64,000 bases of DNA from Christensenellales bacterium. Its GTDB lineage: Bacteria; Bacillota; Clostridia; Christensenellales; CAG-138. Positions 23,283 to 41,443 of the stretch are shown piece after piece (positions within the stretch are counted from its first letter, which is position 1; every line of letters begins with the position of its first letter). The notes beneath the pieces are model-generated. The model made no database searches. It worked only from the letters and a program-made list of their open reading frames with translations, and had not been told where the DNA came from. The stretch is from NCBI GenBank assembly GCA_045114775.1, contig JBGULC010000044.1, forward strand, positions 68,264-132,263, given 5' to 3'. The position numbers and the translations under genes are program-made.

Positions 23283-23370
23283 GAGCATATATCACGAGCC
23301 GCAGGCGCATATCACATTCCGAAAGGATATATCACGTTCCGCGAGTGCGGAACATCTCACTGCGTCGAAG
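23283..23370. repeat. Degenerate direct repeats, core (C)ATAT(AT)CAC, three copies phased exactly 20 bp apart plus one divergent copy
   Basis: Cores end at 23295, 23315 and 23335, with ACATCTCAC ending at 23360. Lies between the YwaF-gene terminator and the xdh operon. Confidence 0.6.
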
Positions 23371-25469: not shown

Positions 25470-25665
25470 TTATCCCGAGAAAATCCCGCCGTGCCGTCCG
25501 CTTTGGGGTGATAAGACCCGCCTCTCAGGCAGGTGGGTACACTGCAGAGCCCGCAATCTTCCCGTCAAAGCGGGCTTGATTTTAGGTCGACCGACGCGTG
25601 CTTTCCCGTAATCACTCTGTGGGTTTATCACATAAAACGTAACGCACACCGCAGGATTTCCTGTA
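25470..25665 (-). ncRNA. Structured 196-nt RNA candidate between tRNA-Val and tRNA-Gln (6S-like rod, or an RNase III-type processing spacer)
   Basis: The 5' and 3' ends pair extensively: plus-strand 25643-25662 with 25474-25495, and 25621-25631 with 25508-25519. There is also an internal hairpin AGCCCGC..GCGGGCT. It abuts both tRNAs. Confidence 0.3.
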
Positions 25666-32854: not shown

Positions 32855-33742
32855 TCACAAAAGCCCTTCGTTCGACATGATCAACCGCATATCCTCCGGC
32901 AGCGGCGCGGAAAACGTCAGCGTTTCGCCCGTGATCGGATGCACAAAGGTGAGCGCCGCCGCGTGCAGCGCAGGGCGGTCGATCCGGTCGCTCCGCGTTC
33001 CGTAGAGCCAGTCGCCGACGAGCGGATGCCCGATGTACGCCGTGTGCACCCGAAGCTGATGCGTCCGCCCGGTGACCGGAACGAGCCGCTCGAGCGTCAT
33101 GCCGTTCTCCGTTTTCAAAGCTTCCAGAAAGCTCCTCGCCTCCGCGCCGTCCGTTCTGACGCAGCGCTGATAGGTCGAGTCCGGCAGCGGTCCGATCGGC
33201 GCGTCGATCACGATCCGCTCCCGTTCGGGGACGCCCTCCACGATCCCGAGATACGTCTTTTGAAACAGTCCCGCATGCTGGATCGCCTTCATCCGCGCGT
33301 GGATATACCCGCTTTTCGCAACGGTCATAAGCCCCGTCGTACCCTTGTCGAGCCGGCTCACCGGATGCGGATTTTCGCGTTCCGTCCACAGCGCTGCAAG
33401 CGCGTTTTCGACCGTGGGTTCTTTCGGATCCCGCGCCGGATGGACCGCAAGGTCCGCGGGCTTAGAAAGCACCGCGAGCCATTCGTCCTCATAGACGATT
33501 TGAATCGGGTATGGAATCGGCGCGATCGGCAGCCGTTCCGGGTCCGCGGGATCGAAGGCGACGACGTCGCCCGTCGCGGTCCTCGCCGTTGTGTAGACCG
33601 GCTCGCCGTTCAGAAGCAGCGCGCCGCGGCGACGCTTGAGCCTTCTCAGGTACGATTCCGAGACCGCGTAGGCGTCTTGAAGGACGTCCTGAACCGTTCT
33701 TCCCGCTTCCTGCGCTTCGATTGTGTGCGTCAGCATTTTCAT
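32855..33742 (-). CDS. RluA-family 23S rRNA/tRNA pseudouridine synthase
   Basis: S4-like N-terminus, catalytic HPVSRLDKGTTGLM, HQLRVH block. Start at 33742 or 33736. Confidence 0.85.
   Translation of the reverse strand: MKMLTHTIEAQEAGRTVQDVLQDAYAVSESYLRRLKRRRGALLLNGEPVYTTARTATGDVVAFDPADPERLPIAPIPYPIQIVYEDEWLAVLSKPADLAVHPARDPKEPTVENALAALWTERENPHPVSRLDKGTTGLMTVAKSGYIHARMKAIQHAGLFQKTYLGIVEGVPERERIVIDAPIGPLPDSTYQRCVRTDGAEARSFLEALKTENGMTLERLVPVTGRTHQLRVHTAYIGHPLVGDWLYGTRSDRIDRPALHAAALTFVHPITGETLTFSAPLPEDMRLIMSNEGLL
32886..32920. repeat. 35-bp direct repeat, copy 2 (inside the pseudouridine synthase coding 3' end)
   Basis: Encodes ..TFSAPLPEDMR of the synthase. Partner at 31076-31110. Confidence 0.85.
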
Positions 33743-33792
33743 GCGCTCAGTATAGCAGAGCGCGGCGGTTTTCGCAAGGCGTATTCGCCCGG

Positions 33793-34275
33793 TCATACGC
33801 TCGTCCGTTTCTCTGCCGAAGCCCGTTTTTCCTGCGCAAGTCTCTTGAGCTCCGCCGCCTTTTCGAAAAAGACCTGCGCCATCTGCTCGCTCGTCAGCGT
33901 ACGCTTGCCGGTCTCCGGCGGGTTCGGTTTCGGCGCAGGCGCGATCGTCTTCGGTTCGGGTGCGATCGGCTTCGGTTCGGGTTTCGGCGGCTCCTCTTCA
34001 AATTCCGGCGCTTCGTAAAGATCCCAGACCGGTCCGAAGCGACCCTGTCTTCTGCGGGTAAAGCCCAAAGTTTCCAGATCCCGCAAGATCTCGCCGATCC
34101 GCTGCTCGGAAACGCCCAGCTCCTCGCCGAGCTGTTTTTCACGGAATTCCCATCCGTCGGGATGCGCGAGCATGTTTGCGTAAACGCCGAGCTGATCCGG
34201 CTGCATGCCCGCAAAGCGCGCGGCGTCGACCGACAGCGGGACGTACATTCTTCTTTTCTGCATTCGTTTGATCAT
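33793..34275 (-). CDS. Winged-helix DNA-binding protein, Rep/DnaD-like (mobile-element-type)
   Basis: ATG at 34275 behind AAGGAGGAAG. HTH segment EKQLGEELGVSEQRIGEILRDLETLGF, Pro-rich linker, coiled C-terminus. Confidence 0.4.
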   Translation of the reverse strand: MIKRMQKRRMYVPLSVDAARFAGMQPDQLGVYANMLAHPDGWEFREKQLGEELGVSEQRIGEILRDLETLGFTRRRQGRFGPVWDLYEAPEFEEEPPKPEPKPIAPEPKTIAPAPKPNPPETGKRTLTSEQMAQVFFEKAAELKRLAQEKRASAEKRTSV

Positions 34276-34313
34276 GGTTTTCTTCCTCCTTGCCAACAGT
34301 ATCGCACAAAATA

Positions 34314-34356
34314 CCCCCTGAAAATTCCTGAAATAAGTTCACAATTCGCTGTCCCG
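34314..34356. repeat. Inverted repeat, left arm (43 nt)
   Basis: CCCCCTGAAAATTCCTGAAATAAGTTCACAATTCGCTGTCCCG. Reverse complement of 34870-34911 apart from one extra T; 37 nt are perfect. Confidence 0.95.
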
Positions 34357-34535
34357 TAAAGCGGACGGAACCGCAGCGATATGTACGGTTTCAATGCCTT
34401 TCCGTGCGGGGCGCGTCCGGACGGACTGCAGGGGCGGGTGACGGATATTTCCTGCCTTATACGCCGGAAGCTTCAAGTCTTTCAACCGGGCGGACGCGAA
34501 AAGAAGCGTGGTCGCCCTTTCATCCGCACTTTCAG

Positions 34536-34569
34536 GGCACGGCATTTGACGTGCCGTGCCTGTCTTTTT
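34536..34569 (+). terminator. Terminator-like hairpin inside the IR-bounded segment
   Basis: GGCACGGCA-tttgacg-TGCCGTGCC followed by TGTCTTTTT. No annotated gene is upstream on this strand. Confidence 0.4.
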
Positions 34570-34604
34570 CTCACATCTCTCTGAATAGTCAGTCTCCTTT
34601 CCCT

Positions 34605-34702
34605 GAGTGAGACGCTTTTTCCTAAGTGAGACTTTCTTTTCTTTTTGGCTTTATTCCTTAAGTAAGTGAGACTATATAAGTGAGACTTAATGGAAGTGAG
34701 AC
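34605..34702. repeat. Five forward copies of (A/G)AGTGAGAC with irregular AT-rich spacing
   Basis: Copies at 34605, 34624, 34664, 34678 and 34694. Confidence 0.9.
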
Positions 34703-34705
34703 GTA

Positions 34706-34826
34706 CTTCCCTTTCTCACTTCCCTGTCTCACTTCCCTTTCTCACTTTCCTGTCTCACTTGCATTTCGTACTTTCCTGTCTCACTTCCCTTTCTCACTTG
34801 CATTTCGCCCTTCCCTGTCGCACTTA
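34706..34826. repeat. 13-bp tandem repeat array, about 9 units, consensus CTTCCCTKTCTCA (reverse complement contains GTGAGAC)
   Basis: Units start at 34706, 34719, 34732, 34745, 34758, 34771, 34784, 34797 and 34810. Orientation is opposite to the left block. Confidence 0.95.
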
Positions 34827-34869
34827 CGCGCCGAAGCCTGGACGGGACAATCGGATTCCTTCCGTTTTT

Positions 34870-34911
34870 CGGGACAGCGAATTGTGAACTTATTTCAGGA
34901 ATTTTCGGGGG
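34870..34911. repeat. Inverted repeat, right arm (42 nt)
   Basis: CGGGACAGCGAATTGTGAACTTATTTCAGGAATTTTCGGGGG. Ends 49 nt before the endolysin start codon. Confidence 0.95.
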
Positions 34912-34960
34912 TGCTTTTCTGCTATGATGGAGTTGCCCGGGAAAGGAAAGGTGATTTCTG

Positions 34961-35689
34961 ATGATTGAAACAAAGGAATTGACAACGGCAAACAGGCTTC
35001 GGGAGGACTTTCTGAAGCTGCTGCGGGGTCAGATCGGAACGGGGATCTACGTCTGGGGCGGCAACGGCGAGATCCTCGATGAGATGAAGGACCCGGTCGG
35101 CTGGATCCTGCAGCATGAAACGAGCCGCGAGAACGCGCAGCGTGTGTTCCGTCTCTACGCAAAGCGGGTCGACGGCGGCGTGAAGCCGATCCGCGCCTTC
35201 GACTGCTCGGGGCTCGTCTATTGGGCGCTGAAGGCGATCGGCGTCCAAAGATCGGACGTTTCGAGCCGCGGGCTTTTTGCGCTCGTGAAGCCGATCGGAG
35301 AGAGCGAGCTGCGTCCCGGCGATCTCGTCTTTCATCACGACGGGAAGCAGATCGTGCATGTCGGCGTGTGCGACGGAGAGGCGCAGATCGAGTGCCGCGG
35401 GCGCGACGTCGGCGTGGTGCGAAACGCGCGTAAGCCCGGTTATTGGAACCGCTTCGGCAGACTTCCGGCTTTTGCGGTCGAGTCGCAGGAGGTCGTAGCG
35501 ATCCTCGGCGGATCGGTGCGCGTTCGCGAAGGCGACAGCGTTGCGTCCCGATGCGTCGGCATCGTGCACAGGGGCGAAACGTACCCGCTGATCGGCGTCG
35601 GCGCGTCCGGCTGGTATCGGATCCTGTGGCGCGGGACCGAGGTCTGTATCACGAACAAGCCTCAGTACACGGAGGTGCGCCGTGGCTGA
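34961..35689 (+). CDS. NlpC/P60 peptidoglycan endopeptidase with C-terminal SH3 domain (phage endolysin-like)
   Basis: Catalytic Cys in AFDCSGLVYWAL and His in IVHVGV. SH3b-like tail GWYRILWRGTEVCI. Confidence 0.8.
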   Translation: MIETKELTTANRLREDFLKLLRGQIGTGIYVWGGNGEILDEMKDPVGWILQHETSRENAQRVFRLYAKRVDGGVKPIRAFDCSGLVYWALKAIGVQRSDVSSRGLFALVKPIGESELRPGDLVFHHDGKQIVHVGVCDGEAQIECRGRDVGVVRNARKPGYWNRFGRLPAFAVESQEVVAILGGSVRVREGDSVASRCVGIVHRGETYPLIGVGASGWYRILWRGTEVCITNKPQYTEVRRG

Positions 35690-35891
35690 AAAGACTGTGA
35701 CCGAGATCCTCGAAGCGCTTGCAAGGATCGAAACGGACGTCAGGACGATCGCGAAGAACGCCGCGGACCACGAAGCGCGGCTGCGCGTCCTGGAGGGCAA
35801 AAGCGGCAAACGAATGGAACAGATCACGGTCTCCGTGATCACGGCGGTGCTCGTCGGTCTCGTCGGGTACGCGCTGGGCAAGGTGTTTTGA
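35682..35891 (+). CDS. xhlA: XhlA-family phage lysis accessory protein
   Basis: 69 aa. Coiled-coil N-terminus and a single C-terminal TM segment. GTG start behind GGAGG, overlapping the endolysin stop. Confidence 0.6.
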   Translation: MAEKTVTEILEALARIETDVRTIAKNAADHEARLRVLEGKSGKRMEQITVSVITAVLVGLVGYALGKVF

Positions 35892-35905
35892 GAAAGGAGG
35901 AACTT

Positions 35906-36094
35906 ATGCGTCAGAGCAGAAACAAGAGCGTGCTCTTTTGGATCGGGCTTGTGTCGGCCGTGTATGAAGCGGTGATCTCGAGCCTGATGAGCGCCGGGGT
36001 CGTGATGCATCCGGTCGTCGGCGCGATCGGCGTAGCGCTTGCGACGGTGCTCATCTACTGCAACGGCAACAACCCGAGTCTGAAGGAGTACTGA
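35906..36094 (+). CDS. Small two-TM phage holin
   Basis: 62 aa from the ATG behind AAGGAGGAAC (the track ORF starts at an upstream TTG). Two hydrophobic helices and a polar C-terminus. Confidence 0.6.
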   Translation: MRQSRNKSVLFWIGLVSAVYEAVISSLMSAGVVMHPVVGAIGVALATVLIYCNGNNPSLKEY

Positions 36095-37072: not shown

Positions 37073-40000
37073 TTACCTGTTCATTCTCCAAATGCTCTGC
37101 CGCTCCGCAGGCCGTTTCGCCGGTACGGGCTGCGCTTCTATGCGCCGCGGTCCTCCGCGAAGGAACGCCGGTTCCGGGAGCGAGTCGGGGGGCGGTTCCG
37201 GAGGATTGCCATCCTGCGTGAGGTCGGCAGAATCTGGGGTCGGGTCGGGGGTCTCGTCCTCTTTCGGGGATTCGGCCGGGTCGGTGGTCTCGTCCTCTTT
37301 CGGGGATTCGACCGGGTCGGTGGTCTCGCTTTCTGTCAGAGTTTCGATCTGTTCGGAGATCTCTCCCTCCGTCGGCTGATCGCCGGCACCTCCCTCGTCA
37401 GAGGGAGGTTGAATCGAAGGCACGGTCGAAGTATCTGTCTCGACTACTGCTCCTTCTCCTACCTCTGAGCTCCCCTTGTCAGGGGAGCTGTCAGCTTCTG
37501 CTGACTGAGGGGTAGTTTCGACTGTGACGGTCGTAAACGAAGCCTCCGGGTTCTCCATCTCTGTCGGGGATTCTTCCGGTTCGGGAATCTCTCCCTCCGT
37601 CGGCTGATCGCAGACATCTCCCTCGTCTAAGGGTAGTTGCGTGCTTGCGTCGGATTCCGGGGTCTCTCCCTCCGTCGGCTGGTCGTCGATGACACATCCT
37701 TCGACCGGAGGCTGATCGGTAGCATCCCCATCGGATGATTCGTCGCAGGACGTCGTTTCCGTATTGTCGAGCGTTTCCTGCTCTGCATCGGAATCTTCGG
37801 GCTGCTTCTCCAAGGCCTCTGCAGCCGCGCGTTCCGCCGTCGAATCAAGACGAATGCCGCGCAGCAGGAACGTCGGGATCGGGAACGAGATCGGCACCTC
37901 CTCGATCGGAAACGCTTTGTGTTCCTCTGCCGTCGGCGATTCTGCAGGAGGTTCTTCTTCCGTCAGCGCTTCGACCGGGTCGGGGGGTTCTTCTTCCGTC
38001 AGAGCTTCGATCGGTTCGTGGGACTCTCCTTCCGTCAGGGCTTCGGTCTGTTCTGAGGTCTCTCCCTCCGTCGGCTGTTCGCCGACACCTCCCTCGTCAG
38101 AGGGAGGTTGCGTGCTTGCGTCGGATTCCGGGATTTTTCCCTCCGTCGGCTGTTCGTCGACACCTCCTTCATCAAAGGGAGGTTGAATCGAAGGATCAGT
38201 CGAAGTATCTGTCTCGCGTACTGCTACTTCTCCAACGTCCGAGCGCCCCTTGTCAGGGGAATTGTCAGCTTCTGCTGACTGAGGGGTAGTTCCGTCGGTG
38301 ACGGTCGTAAACGAAGCCTCCGGGTTCTCCCTCTCCGTCGGGGATTCGTCCGGTTCCGGGATCTCTCCCTCCGTCGGCTGATCGCAGATAATACTGTCTT
38401 CAGCAACGGGCTGAACCGCGTCGCTTTCGTCGGCAGCGGGCTGAATTGCGGCGCTTTCTTTGGCAGCAGGCTGAGCCGCGGCGCTCTCGTCAACTATGGT
38501 TTGAACCGCTGTGCTTTCGTCGGCAGCGGGCTGAATTGCGGCGACGCTGTCGGCGAGCGTTTCCGGGACGATTTCCGATTCCGGCATTATTTCTTTGAAC
38601 GAAACTTCCGGTATGGGATCCCTGTCGTGCTTCGCTTCGCCGGCGATTGCGGAGATCGCCGCTGCAGAAGCCGGTATGACAGTCGAGGTAGGCTCGTCAA
38701 AGCCGTTGACGTAATGCAAAAGGGAAACGCCGTCCCGAAGCGTATGCGAAGCCTCGGATCCGTGCGACGAATCGGATCCTTTGAAGGAAGACGGTTCGAC
38801 CGTTTTGCGCAAACCGGATTCCGAAACCGTCCGCACAACAAAGGTTCTTTCCGCGGCAGGCGCCGCGGGTTTTGCCGGTTCATGTTCCGTCTTCGGACGC
38901 GGCATGACCGTTCGCACGACAGCGGGCCGCTCCGAAGATCTCGGTTCGGCGAAACGGGCGCTTTCCGGTTTTGTGGCAACCGGCTCGACAGGCCGTCTGA
39001 ACACGACGGTCTCGTCGCTCGTACGCGCGGCGGGTCTTTCAAATGCGGGTGCTTCCGCCGTCGGTCTGCGGAACTCGCCGGTATTGCCCTTCGGTCTCGG
39101 CGTGACCGGTTCGGCGGGCCGTCTGAACGCTGCGTCTTCCGTCGGACGCGCGGCGGGTCTTTCAAATGCGGCTGCTTCCGCTGTCGGTCTGCGGAATTCG
39201 CCGGTGTTGCCCTTCGGTCTCGGCGTAACAGGTTCGGCGGGACGCCGGAATGTTGCGGTCTCCTCCGCGGATCGCGCCGCGGGTCTTCCCGATTCGGATG
39301 CTTCCGCAGTCGGTCTGCGGAATTCGCCGGTGTTGCCCTTCGGTCTCGGCGTAACAGGTTCAGTACGCCGCGCCGCGGGTCTTGCAAATTCGGATGCTTC
39401 CGCTGTCGGTCTGCGGAATTCGCCGGTATCGCTCTTCGGTCTCGGCGTGACCGGTTCGGCGGGACGTACGTATGCAGCCGTTCCGGGCTTTGCCGTCAGC
39501 ATGATGCGTGTGCCGTCTGCGGTGCGCATTGAATCGGGCTTGGCAGCCGACAGGACGCGTGTGCCGTCGCCGTCGATGCGTACTGATGTATCCTGTGCGG
39601 CAGAACGTGCTGCGGGTCGCGCGCCTTCGCGCCGCATATCCTCGGCAAGGCCTCTTGCGTATAGCTCGCGCCTTGCCTTCGCCTCCTCGTCGGTCAGTTC
39701 GCCGTAGCTTCTGAGCTTGATCGGCTGTCGGTAGCCGAAGCGCTCGGTCGGCGTGTCGTTGAAAAGCGGATCGTCCGGGCGGCGTTTGGTGGCGCGAAGC
39801 GCCTTCTCCATGTCCTCCTCGAACTCGCCCGGCAGCTTGCTTCTGATCTTTCTTTCGAACGCGTAAAGCACGATACACACGATCGCGCAGAACGCCGCGA
39901 CGCCGAGCGTGATCACGGTGATGAGCTTCAGGATCCCGCGATACTTCGCGTCGAGATCCTGCATATAGGGATTGGTGGTAACGACGTAGACCGGATCGGT

Positions 40001-41443
40001 CTTGCGGTCGACCTGATCGCGGAACGGCGTCGTATCGACGGTGACCGTCTGTGAGCTGTGCGTCTGTCCCGCCGGATCCTCTGCGTCGACGCGGAAGCAG
40101 AGCTTGCCGACGCCGTCGATCTGATAGGTCTGCGTAAAATAGGTATCGCCGCGCAAAAGCTCCGGATAGGACACGACCTCATGGAACAGGGTCGTTTCGG
40201 TCAGTACGGCTTTTTTGAGCCTGATGTCGCCGTAATAGCCGATCCGGAACTGGAACGCAACACAGAGCTTGCCGTTGCCGTCGAAGTAAGGCTTCTGCGG
40301 CTCGACGCGCAGCTCGATGCGCACGCCCTCCTGCTCGATATACGGCGTCACGCGGAAGGATTCGGGATCGGTAACGGTAACGGGCTTTAGAAGCGCATCC
40401 GTTCCGGTCGCATGGAAACGCACCGTGCGGATGACGTCCGCGGCGACGCCCGGCTTCACAACATAACGGATCGATTTCGTCTGATTCGCGGGCAGATCGA
40501 AGGGATTGTCGACGAGCGTATTGATCTCATCGTAGACACGGATGTCGGTAACCGTGCGGTTGCCGTTGTTTTTAACGGTGATGATGAACTCGGTCCCCGC
40601 TTCCGTTGCCGGGAACGCCTGTGTGGAGATCGATAGATCCACTGTGACGGAACCGACGCCGATCGCCGTCTCCGCGACCGTCGTGATGTTTCTGCGCCGC
40701 GCAACGTATTCGACCGTCGGGCGGAACGTCATATCCGTCACGCCCATCGTGTAGGTCACGGGCACGACCATCGTCCGTCCCGCGGTAAGCTCGTCGCTTG
40801 TGAGCGGGATCGACTGAAGCCCCTGCTCCGGATCGTAGAGCCGAAGCCCGGTCATATCGAACAGGGTGTCGTTTTTCAGCGTGTATTCGACGGTAAACGA
40901 ATCGCCGACCCGCACGAGCTCGTTCTCGCAGAAGGCGGAAACGGTCAACTCGGGCACGATAAACCGCTCGATCACGATGTTTGCGGAGGTTTCCCTGAAA
41001 TGCGTGATCGTAACGGCTTCGCCGGTCTCGTCGTCGATGAGCGCTTCGCCCGTTTCCTCGTCAAAAGCCGGTTCATGCTCCTCCCAGGAAAGCGTATAGG
41101 TCACGGGAACGTCAAGCTGATCCTCGGCGATGGGGACGTCGGAAAGCGTGAACTCCCGCTTGCCGCCCGCAAGGACCTCGATCTTCTCGTCGAGCGCGCG
41201 TTCGACGTCTTCATAGCCGCCGGAAAGCTTTGCGTTATACAGCGTATAGTCGGATTCGGAATCGTTGAAGATCGTGAAAAGCATGTCCGGCACGGTCCCT
41301 TCGCCCTCAAGTTCGGGCATCGGATCGACCGTGATCGAAAGCGTGATCGGATGCTCGCCCTCGGCAAAGCCGCCCGCGGGGACGATCGATGCCGGGAGCA
41401 GAAGCGCCAATATGCAGATCAGGATGACAATGCGTCGTTTCAT
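37073..41443 (-). CDS. Giant single-pass membrane protein: signal peptide, four Ig-like/CARDB-like modules, TM segment, and an approximately 930-aa disordered repeat-rich tail
   Basis: 1456 aa. Signal peptide MKRRIVILICILALLL, TM segment ILKLITVITLGVAAFCAIVCIVLYAF near residue 500, tail rich in P/E/T/A/R with tandem and segmental repeats. Confidence 0.75.
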   Translation of the reverse strand: MKRRIVILICILALLLPASIVPAGGFAEGEHPITLSITVDPMPELEGEGTVPDMLFTIFNDSESDYTLYNAKLSGGYEDVERALDEKIEVLAGGKREFTLSDVPIAEDQLDVPVTYTLSWEEHEPAFDEETGEALIDDETGEAVTITHFRETSANIVIERFIVPELTVSAFCENELVRVGDSFTVEYTLKNDTLFDMTGLRLYDPEQGLQSIPLTSDELTAGRTMVVPVTYTMGVTDMTFRPTVEYVARRRNITTVAETAIGVGSVTVDLSISTQAFPATEAGTEFIITVKNNGNRTVTDIRVYDEINTLVDNPFDLPANQTKSIRYVVKPGVAADVIRTVRFHATGTDALLKPVTVTDPESFRVTPYIEQEGVRIELRVEPQKPYFDGNGKLCVAFQFRIGYYGDIRLKKAVLTETTLFHEVVSYPELLRGDTYFTQTYQIDGVGKLCFRVDAEDPAGQTHSSQTVTVDTTPFRDQVDRKTDPVYVVTTNPYMQDLDAKYRGILKLITVITLGVAAFCAIVCIVLYAFERKIRSKLPGEFEEDMEKALRATKRRPDDPLFNDTPTERFGYRQPIKLRSYGELTDEEAKARRELYARGLAEDMRREGARPAARSAAQDTSVRIDGDGTRVLSAAKPDSMRTADGTRIMLTAKPGTAAYVRPAEPVTPRPKSDTGEFRRPTAEASEFARPAARRTEPVTPRPKGNTGEFRRPTAEASESGRPAARSAEETATFRRPAEPVTPRPKGNTGEFRRPTAEAAAFERPAARPTEDAAFRRPAEPVTPRPKGNTGEFRRPTAEAPAFERPAARTSDETVVFRRPVEPVATKPESARFAEPRSSERPAVVRTVMPRPKTEHEPAKPAAPAAERTFVVRTVSESGLRKTVEPSSFKGSDSSHGSEASHTLRDGVSLLHYVNGFDEPTSTVIPASAAAISAIAGEAKHDRDPIPEVSFKEIMPESEIVPETLADSVAAIQPAADESTAVQTIVDESAAAQPAAKESAAIQPAADESDAVQPVAEDSIICDQPTEGEIPEPDESPTERENPEASFTTVTDGTTPQSAEADNSPDKGRSDVGEVAVRETDTSTDPSIQPPFDEGGVDEQPTEGKIPESDASTQPPSDEGGVGEQPTEGETSEQTEALTEGESHEPIEALTEEEPPDPVEALTEEEPPAESPTAEEHKAFPIEEVPISFPIPTFLLRGIRLDSTAERAAAEALEKQPEDSDAEQETLDNTETTSCDESSDGDATDQPPVEGCVIDDQPTEGETPESDASTQLPLDEGDVCDQPTEGEIPEPEESPTEMENPEASFTTVTVETTPQSAEADSSPDKGSSEVGEGAVVETDTSTVPSIQPPSDEGGAGDQPTEGEISEQIETLTESETTDPVESPKEDETTDPAESPKEDETPDPTPDSADLTQDGNPPEPPPDSLPEPAFLRGGPRRIEAQPVPAKRPAERQSIWRMNR
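38990..39470. repeat. In-frame tandem repeats within the giant ORF (four units, periods 123/126/96 bp)
   Basis: The core GCTTCCGCNGTCGGTCTGCGGAAYTCGCCGGT recurs at 39051, 39174, 39300 and 39396. It encodes EPVTPRPKxxTGEFRRPTAEA. Confidence 0.9.

Follow-up and report, generated by a model that had tools for sequence, protein, structure and literature searches.

What does a long inverted repeat do when it stands between two divergent genes, with its arms set around a few hundred base pairs of non-coding DNA? The question is raised by a 64,000-nt stretch of DNA from a Christensenellales bacterium (contig JBGULC010000044.1, positions 68,264 to 132,263 of the forward strand), hereafter the window, in which such a repeat separates a minus-strand gene for a 160-aa winged-helix protein from a plus-strand gene for an NlpC/P60 peptidoglycan endopeptidase. 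The original prediction had offered two answers: an inverton-like switch, or a duplicated operator/-35 region that co-regulates the two genes. Our analysis favors a fuller form of the second. With a probability of roughly 0.62, this is a static, vertically inherited, bidirectional control region whose arms would belong to outward-facing promoters and whose interior short repeats, or iterons, would bind the winged-helix protein.

The inverted repeat itself is genuine. Its 37-nt perfect core, GAAAATTCCTGAAATAAGTTCACAATTCGCTGTCCCG, occurs exactly twice in the window, at 34320-34356 on the plus strand and at 34870-34906 on the minus strand, and 100 shuffles gave zero matches to it even with 3 mismatches tolerated, which is far beyond chance origin. 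When mismatches were allowed, the repeat search extended the arms to 34301-34370 (arm W, on the winged-helix side) and 34856-34925 (arm N, on the NlpC/P60 side), each 70 nt long, 87% complementary and separated by 485 nt. The segment between them holds a GC-rich stretch, a terminator-like hairpin and two opposed GTCTCACTT arrays. In these structural matters the original prediction was sound: the perfect core is confirmed by the exact-match count, the shuffles and the repeat search, the distances from the arms to the two starts are right (38 nt to the ATG at 34275 on the minus strand and 49 nt to the ATG at 34961 on the plus strand), the left part of the segment is indeed GC-rich, and the hairpin with its T-run and the opposed arrays were all recovered. 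Two Logan contigs from the window's strain (L001:1-31 and L002:1-31) stop at the same 31-mer within each arm, GCGAATTGTGAACTTATTTCAGGAATTTTC, because the repeat exceeds k=31. A repeat of this kind breaks k=31 assemblies, so that short-read assemblies of such loci would often be fragmented exactly there.

A function for the arms is suggested when each is read toward the gene that it faces. Both then give the same series of elements: GAATTGTGAAC, 10 nt, GGAATTTT, 17 nt, and TGC followed by GATACT or TATGAT. Arm W, read on the minus strand, has GAATTGTGAAC at 34337-34347 and GGAATTTT at the -35 position (34321-34328), and would form the upstream half of the winged-helix gene promoter. The putative extended -10 of that promoter, TGC GATACT, lies 17 nt from GGAATTTT at 34298-34306 on the same strand. 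Arm N, read on the plus strand, has GAATTGTGAAC at 34879-34889 and GGAATTTT at 34898-34905, and would be the corresponding half of the promoter of a lysis cassette that begins with the NlpC/P60 gene; here the extended -10, TGC TATGAT, is read 17 nt past GGAATTTT at 34920-34928. The upstream box, GAAWTGTGAAM, falls at about -56 to -46, and each arm makes up the -56 to -30 part of its promoter. A short leader follows the extended -10 and leads to a good ribosome-binding site. In the window the box is found at the two arms only, and in the fetched loci described below it is again found at these arms only. The inverted repeat therefore looks like an outward-facing promoter together with its mirror image, a part of the expression signals rather than a mere pair of boundaries, and some factor presumably recognizes the GAAWTGTGAA box. 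A CRP/FNR-, Rex- or CodY-type site was considered for the arms and rejected, as the half-site TGTGAA alone is conserved and inspection by eye found no second half-site across the loci. To promoters of the sporulation sigma factors (sigma G, E and K) the arms have a partial likeness, confined to the -10 (CATACT).

Is this arrangement peculiar to the window? Related loci were obtained from look-ups and from profile searches of genome contigs, in which a narrow alignment matched nothing and a broader alignment did; a profile scan of viral contigs gave no match. By their winged-helix proteins, a sister lineage (L006, L022, L005, L003, L020, L021, L023 and L024) is 82% identical to the window by BLAST local alignment and 92% by MAFFT, another group (L007, L025 and L004) is about 61% identical, and a set of metagenome-assembled genomes (MAGs) of uncultured rumen/gut Clostridia (L008, L009, L010, L011, L013, L015 and L016) is 34-42% identical. 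Nine other species-level loci have the twin-promoter/iteron layout, again between the winged-helix and NlpC/P60 genes. The same inverted-duplicate promoter anatomy, at equal distance to both starts, is seen in L006, L007, L009, L011, L013 and partial loci, and L008, L010 and L016 carry a variant in which both copies are built on a TTCCGGGAA-centred element. On the winged-helix side a TGnNATACT element keeps its spacing in nine other loci; on the lysis side the -10 is kept in related loci as TGnTATGAT, TATGCT or TACAAT. The separation of the arms varies (317, 485, ~1050 and 1255 nt). When the window proteins were used as tblastn queries, the conserved order was a large secreted protein, an S9-type hydrolase, two small proteins, NlpC/P60, the intergenic region, the winged-helix gene, an RluA gene, a variable gene and SpoVT. 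Neighboring proteins are 60-90% identical across the syntenic loci as compared with 34-38% for the winged-helix protein. The conserved synteny argues that the arrangement is old and vertically inherited, with the winged-helix gene by far its fastest-evolving member. The idea of a duplicated operator/-35 region that co-regulates two genes is thus supported, and it would extend beyond the window, given the twin inverted promoters at the same place in the nine other loci.

The interior of the segment is dominated by iterons. Array 1 (34605-34702, minus strand) consists of five GTCTCACTT copies, which read AAGTGAGAC on the plus strand; four are exact and one carries a single mismatch, and their spacing is irregular at 19, 40, 14 and 16 nt. 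Array 2 (34713-34825, plus strand) lies head-to-head with array 1 and is made of nine units of [T/G]TCTCACTT-CCC on a strict 13-nt period, seven of them good and two degenerate. All 8 exact GTCTCACTT copies of the window fall within 34624-34786, inside 165 nt. The intergenic region has a GC content of 30-43%, against mostly 55-62% in the flanks, both in the window and in related loci, and in every locus examined an AT-rich block full of short repeats, in direct or opposed arrays, lies between the arms.

The remainder of the interior is less constant. The GC-rich spacer (34371-34534) is about 95% conserved in the sister lineage over the ~85 nt nearest the winged-helix gene and is absent from remoter relatives, and is not core to the module. 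Folding z-scores of -1.4 and -0.8 gave no significant RNA structure in this part. A structured RNA or riboswitch was rejected here, since no Rfam match was found at E<=1 except spurious miRNA matches on the iteron palindrome, and the stretch is not kept beyond the sister lineage. The terminator-like hairpin (34535-34571, plus strand) has an 11-pair stem at 34535-34561 followed by the T-run tail GTCTTTTTCT, and it points from the winged-helix side toward the iterons. It is kept, and duplicated, in the sister lineage, and other relatives have different hairpins near arm W. By this comparison, spacer and hairpin alike are lineage-specific additions in the window. The sister-lineage intergenic region is also ~700 nt longer (L006:838-1562; also L022:2740-4000) and contains a 164-nt tandem duplication that includes the hairpin, three 50-nt repeats and four 12-nt repeats (CGCGCGTACCAT). 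In one member (L020:1-140), the intergenic region includes, between its iteron side and the winged-helix arm, the C-terminal end of a transposase reading frame (..NARPKKVLGFNKPVDLFD), which a manual translation suggests is IS30-like by its likeness to the C-termini of IS30 transposases. An insertion in the L020 intergenic region appears to have been tolerated.

The main argument for iteron binding, an indirect one, comes from comparing the iteron motifs with the proteins encoded beside them. The iteron motif is clade-specific and tracks the winged-helix phylogeny with one exception. The window, L006, L007 and L004, with N-terminal domains at least 73% identical, have iterons of the TCTCACTT type. 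Those of the AAACAGGTTTATT type occur in L008 and L016 (N-terminal domains 71% identical), and the related AAACCGGATTATT is found in L013. L012 and L014, with proteins 98% identical, have AAGAAGATCGTTCTT, and ATCTATATAGAT is found in L010 and L015. The exception is the TAATTAC/GAT core, common to L009, L011 and L015 at a mere 41-48% protein identity. The 13-nt iteron spacing of the window gives way to 14, 22 or 28-32 nt in other loci, and the variable positions of the protein include the predicted recognition helix. Such co-variation would be the signature of a DNA-binding protein that co-evolves with its own site array. A paralogous module (L012:4521-5489 and L014:2475-3424) repeats the design with twin GAATTGTGAA arms, AAGAAGATCGTTCTT iterons and a winged-helix gene, and its far-side outward promoter faces a citrate-lyase citE/citF operon. 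L014 belongs to the same MAG as the canonical locus L009, and the two modules differ in iteron motif, their proteins being 43% identical. The presence of a second module beside a citrate-lyase operon favors a transcription-regulator role over a replication role. The original prediction did not extend to the conserved chromosomal setting, the lysis-cassette partners or the co-variation of iterons and winged-helix protein.

The 160-aa protein (33793-34275, minus strand), the probable iteron-binding protein, has an N-terminal winged helix, a low-complexity Pro-rich linker and a conserved C-terminal helix. Among 1.8 billion representatives searched exhaustively with HMMER, only ~22 clusters reach E<1e-10, all of 150-170 aa and with the same architecture; remoter matches are longer proteins with an N-terminal HTH_36 domain. 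Pfam matches to TrmB and HTH_36 are sub-threshold, the latter also in 9 of 21 family members. The PHROG replication-initiator matches are weak (E ~2e-4). In the PDB the fold matches are to winged-helix regulators of a generic kind, including TubR and AspA at a weak E of ~3e-3, and the viral (BFVD) fold matches to a 'replisome organizer', a 'RepA-like initiator' and HTH proteins are weak as well (E 5e-5 to 1e-3, TM ~0.4). No tblastn match was found in 50,697 phage and 72,556 plasmid records. The label 'Rep-like winged helix' that the gene had been given is acceptable on a weak basis, namely the sub-threshold TrmB/HTH_36 and weak PHROG initiator matches, and it would denote a distant resemblance of the DNA-binding domain rather than family membership. 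The stop codon of this gene overlaps by 4 nt (ATGA, 33793-33796) the start of an RluA-family pseudouridine synthase gene (32855-33796, minus strand; TIGR00005 above cut-off). This overlap indicates that the two genes form one operon and implies translational coupling. In relatives the two genes are 10-50 nt apart.

On the other side of the segment, the first cassette gene (34961-35689, plus strand) encodes the 242-aa NlpC/P60 endopeptidase (Pfam NlpC/P60, E 1.2e-11), in which inspection of the translation by eye found no obvious signal peptide at the N-terminus. Two small membrane proteins with transmembrane segments and likeness to XhlA/holin-like families follow at 35682-36094 on the same strand. 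The first, of 69 aa, has a coiled coil and a C-terminal transmembrane segment and resembles the XhlA, hemolysin and holin families; it matches phrog_937 hemolysin (1.4e-5) and phrog_689 holin (3.8e-4), which makes for a weak holin assignment. The second (62-68 aa) has two hydrophobic or transmembrane segments and is holin-like, again by a weak assignment. A hydrolase and holin-type small membrane proteins in one operon are what a phage-type cassette contains, and the combination of NlpC/P60, XhlA-like and two-transmembrane proteins looks like such a lysis cassette. The name 'endolysin' used earlier for the first gene may be kept, on the weak basis of its NlpC/P60 domain and the XhlA/holin-like small proteins behind it.

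Could the segment nevertheless be invertible? In invertons, the fimS-type invertible promoters, a serine or tyrosine invertase usually lies nearby. Here 34371-34855 would have to be flipped by a recombinase whose gene lies elsewhere, or by RecA through the 37-70-nt arms, and such a flip would shift the terminator and the GC-rich spacer between the promoters and change which operon is insulated or iteron-proximal. Long inverted repeats around ~500 bp speak for such a switch, but Pfam scans of ~56 open reading frames across the 64-kb window found no integrase, resolvase or invertase domain, in agreement with the earlier remark that no recombinase lies nearby. Inspection of related assemblies for both orientations, which had been proposed as a check, returned one orientation in 6 of the 6 consensus assemblies of the closest (TCTCACTT) clade (the window, L006, L022, L007, L025 and the partial L004), with a constant order of NlpC/P60 arm, AAGTGAGA array, TCTCACTT array, hairpin and winged-helix arm. 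L025 and L007, which come from independent samples, are identical at 459 of 470 positions and collinear. In the sister lineage the arms are identical at 44 of 55 positions and have no common run of 9 nt or more, with the layout intact. The variable separation of the arms (317 to 1255 nt) and the transposase end in the intergenic region of one strain also argue against a switch. No promoter-like element was found inside the segment, the sole directional internal feature being the terminator-like hairpin. Since both promoters point outward from positions within or beyond the arms, an inversion of the middle would not displace them and would switch neither gene on or off. The arms do show concerted evolution with the signature of gene conversion and must recombine at times. 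Arm identity averages 77% within a genome versus 66-69% between genomes, with the window at the extreme of 91%, and arm N of the window is closer to the sister arm W (89%) than to the sister arm N (84%). These values indicate occasional gene conversion between the promoter copies, probably with a recent event in the window's lineage, and such conversion would explain why the arms look like recombination sites. The near-perfect arm identity would be best explained by this recent conversion and not by site-specific inversion. A further hint of inversion comes from L008 and L016, which have the same iteron type, mirror-image array copy numbers (1+5 versus 4+1) and interiors that align better with one of them inverted (score 78 versus 60), but this pattern fits array expansion and contraction equally well. 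Taken together, the inverton-like switch did not find support, and we consider it very unlikely. A miniature inverted-repeat transposable element (MITE), non-autonomous and inserted between the two genes, could also present 70-nt terminal inverted repeats around a ~625-bp non-coding segment. The arm sequence, however, occurs just twice in the window, no direct repeat was seen by eye in the ~10 nt beside each arm, and the arms contain promoters and hold the same place relative to both starts in loci whose proteins are ~35% identical. A MITE or another insertion sequence was rejected on these observations and is scarcely credible.

Other alternatives accept a fixed segment and give its parts different roles. 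The arms alone may be functional, in which case a host factor, an alternative sigma or an activator at GAAWTGTGAA, would co-activate both operons, the iterons would be incidental and the winged-helix protein would have some other target. In favor of this, the loci agree in the box and its spacing but not in their iteron motifs, the iterons are placed upstream of the core promoters, and SpoVT and other sporulation-type genes are neighbors. Yet the block of iterons persists between the arms in every locus examined despite complete motif turnover, the motif follows the clade of the adjacent winged-helix protein, and its exact copies are found nowhere else in the window; we regard this alternative as unlikely. 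Somewhat more doubtful is a replication origin or centromere-like site, in which the winged-helix protein would bind ori or par iterons, the whole being a domesticated phage or plasmid element fixed in an origin-proximal position with the twin promoters secondary. The weak HTH_36, PHROG initiator, replisome-organizer and RepA-like matches, the presence of TubR and AspA among the PDB folds, the two opposed iteron arrays in an AT-rich block, and the fast evolution of protein and iteron specificity, as in incompatibility determinants, are all compatible with it. So is the base composition: plus-strand GC skew is -0.050 over 1-34000 versus +0.006 over 35000-64000, the cumulative G-C minimum falls at 34832 inside the iteron block, and for genes of both strands the plus-strand skew toward G is ~0.05 higher right of the locus than left of it, a strand-independent shift with the polarity of an origin and with noisy per-gene values. 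On the other hand, the right-hand skew is near zero rather than positive and the gene-strand bias has no switch at the locus. The protein is a single winged-helix domain of 160 aa for which no Rep or ParB-type Pfam family reaches threshold, the phage and plasmid records hold no match to it, no helicase, loader or partition NTPase gene is adjacent, and the paralogous module adjoins a metabolic operon. A DnaA-dependent origin was rejected because no DnaA box is present in the region. The local GC-skew 'V' of related loci was set aside as uninformative, being driven by gene orientation and by lysis genes with very G-rich coding strands. We would give slightly less credence than to the inverton to a variant in which the module derives from a phage or plasmid system that bound an origin or centromere, is now fixed in the chromosome and still acts on DNA instead of or besides transcription. 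If this is true, the locus could be, for example, a secondary initiation site independent of DnaA, or a site near the origin for anchoring or organizing; the fast joint evolution of protein and iterons would then stem from conflicts over specificity, and the skew minimum at the iterons would be meaningful.

How, then, would the static bidirectional control region work? We infer that its promoters fire as drawn and that its iterons are bound by the protein encoded beside them. The two arms would be inverted copies of one promoter type and would co-express two transcription units, one copy driving the phage-derived lysis cassette (the NlpC/P60 endopeptidase, XhlA-like and holin-like proteins) and the other the small winged-helix protein with the RluA-family pseudouridine synthase. 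The winged-helix protein would load cooperatively on the ~14 short repeats of the two opposed arrays, and the nucleoprotein complex formed there, upstream of the two promoters, would govern how strongly the lethal lysis genes and the protein's own operon are expressed. The most likely sign is repression of both promoters with autoregulation, which would give tight control of the lethal genes. Several observations weigh against this account of the locus. A simple sigma-70 scan called neither promoter, their -35 hexamer being poor. Since the iterons do not overlap the core promoters but lie upstream, either repression or activation is possible. The species-specific part of the arms is unlike the iterons, so that co-variation of the arms needs a second factor or recombination alone. 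As for orientation, consensus assemblies would hide a minority inverted subpopulation, and the Logan unitigs from the same strain, which break within the arms, are uninformative.

The locus is chromosomal and not phage. Its neighbors in the window are an aminotransferase, an SDR protein, xanthine dehydrogenase subunits, a Zn ABC transporter and other ABC transporters, ftsH, hpt, tilS, RNase G/E and a SpoVT-type regulator, and these housekeeping genes rule out a prophage setting. PADLOC, run on seven proteins of the locus, gave no defence-system match apart from one insignificant hit, and our literature search found nothing that describes such an arrangement. The window also carries tRNAs and two RNAs above their Rfam gathering scores, Gut-1 RNA at 23284-23362 (minus strand, 59.5 bits) and 6S RNA at 25479-25660 (minus strand, 60.9 bits), the 6S gene lying between tRNA-Gln and tRNA-Val. 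Farther along, 37073-41443 (minus strand) encodes a 1456-aa protein with a signal peptide, a mid-protein transmembrane segment and long acidic or Pro-rich repeats (for example PRPKGNTGEFRRPTAEA, in four copies). Its sole match is a weak one to DUF7507, and in relatives it is syntenic with the locus at 50-61% identity.

Plasmids and phages offer familiar examples of control regions in which iterons are paired with a small DNA-binding protein of their own. In the present case such a region would occupy a fixed chromosomal position across a clade of uncultured rumen/gut Clostridia, with mirror-image promoters, and its apparent target is a domesticated lysis cassette, whose genes are lethal to the cell when mis-expressed. 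If the proposed mechanism is true, the locus would offer a tractable example of how uncultured anaerobes control programmed lysis, of a transcription factor and operator array that co-evolve fast while the regulated genes stay conserved, and of concerted evolution of two promoter copies through gene conversion. It also carries a caution for inverton screens, where a long inverted repeat that separates two divergent genes may turn out to be a duplicated promoter.

The module can finally be set beside known systems. It shares with invertons (fimS-type, PhaseFinder-class) the inverted repeats around a few hundred bp of intergenic DNA, and differs from them in its outward-facing promoters, in a window where no invertase was found, in the single orientation of its closest clade and in sister arms that have diverged with the layout kept. 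The PBSX-type lysis cassette, xhlA-xhlB-xlyA, in which the hydrolase is an amidase, is a domesticated holin-endolysin module that likewise combines a hydrolase, an XhlA-like coiled-coil/transmembrane protein and a small protein with two transmembrane segments on the chromosome; the present cassette has another gene order, an NlpC/P60 endopeptidase in place of the amidase, no surrounding prophage and putative twin-promoter/iteron control. Replisome organizers and initiators (HTH_36-type, SPP1 G38P-like) resemble the winged-helix protein in their N-terminal winged helix, linker and C-terminal helix and in the iterons beside the gene. The present protein, by contrast, is half as long, lacks a C-terminal domain that recruits a helicase loader, has no tblastn match among phages and plasmids and no replication genes around it, and keeps its chromosomal synteny. 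Against iteron theta replicons, whose Rep has two winged helices (Rep_3, RepA_N), the protein offers a single winged helix, and the region has iterons and an AT-rich block without a DnaA box.

A further likeness is to plasmid partition and operator arrays, such as ParR-parC (R1/pSK41), TubR-tubC (pBtoxis) and omega-heptad (pSM19035), in which a small dimeric DNA-binding protein coats repeats of 7-20 bp and specificity diverges rapidly between relatives. Here, too, many short direct or opposed repeats lie beside the promoter of the operon for the candidate binding protein, and TubR, itself a winged-helix protein, is among the weak fold matches of that protein. Unlike ParR-parC and TubR-tubC, the module has no adjacent ParM, TubZ or ParA gene, its neighbors being RluA, a Pro-rich lipoprotein-like protein, SpoVT and NlpC/P60. 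It also differs from the plasmid arrays in being chromosomal and syntenic across species, in having two mirror-image promoters with a lysis cassette as second target, and in standing outside their sequence families. By analogy, the module would work as the iteron-operator arrays of plasmid partition and replication do, while its protein and its gene neighborhood set it apart from them.

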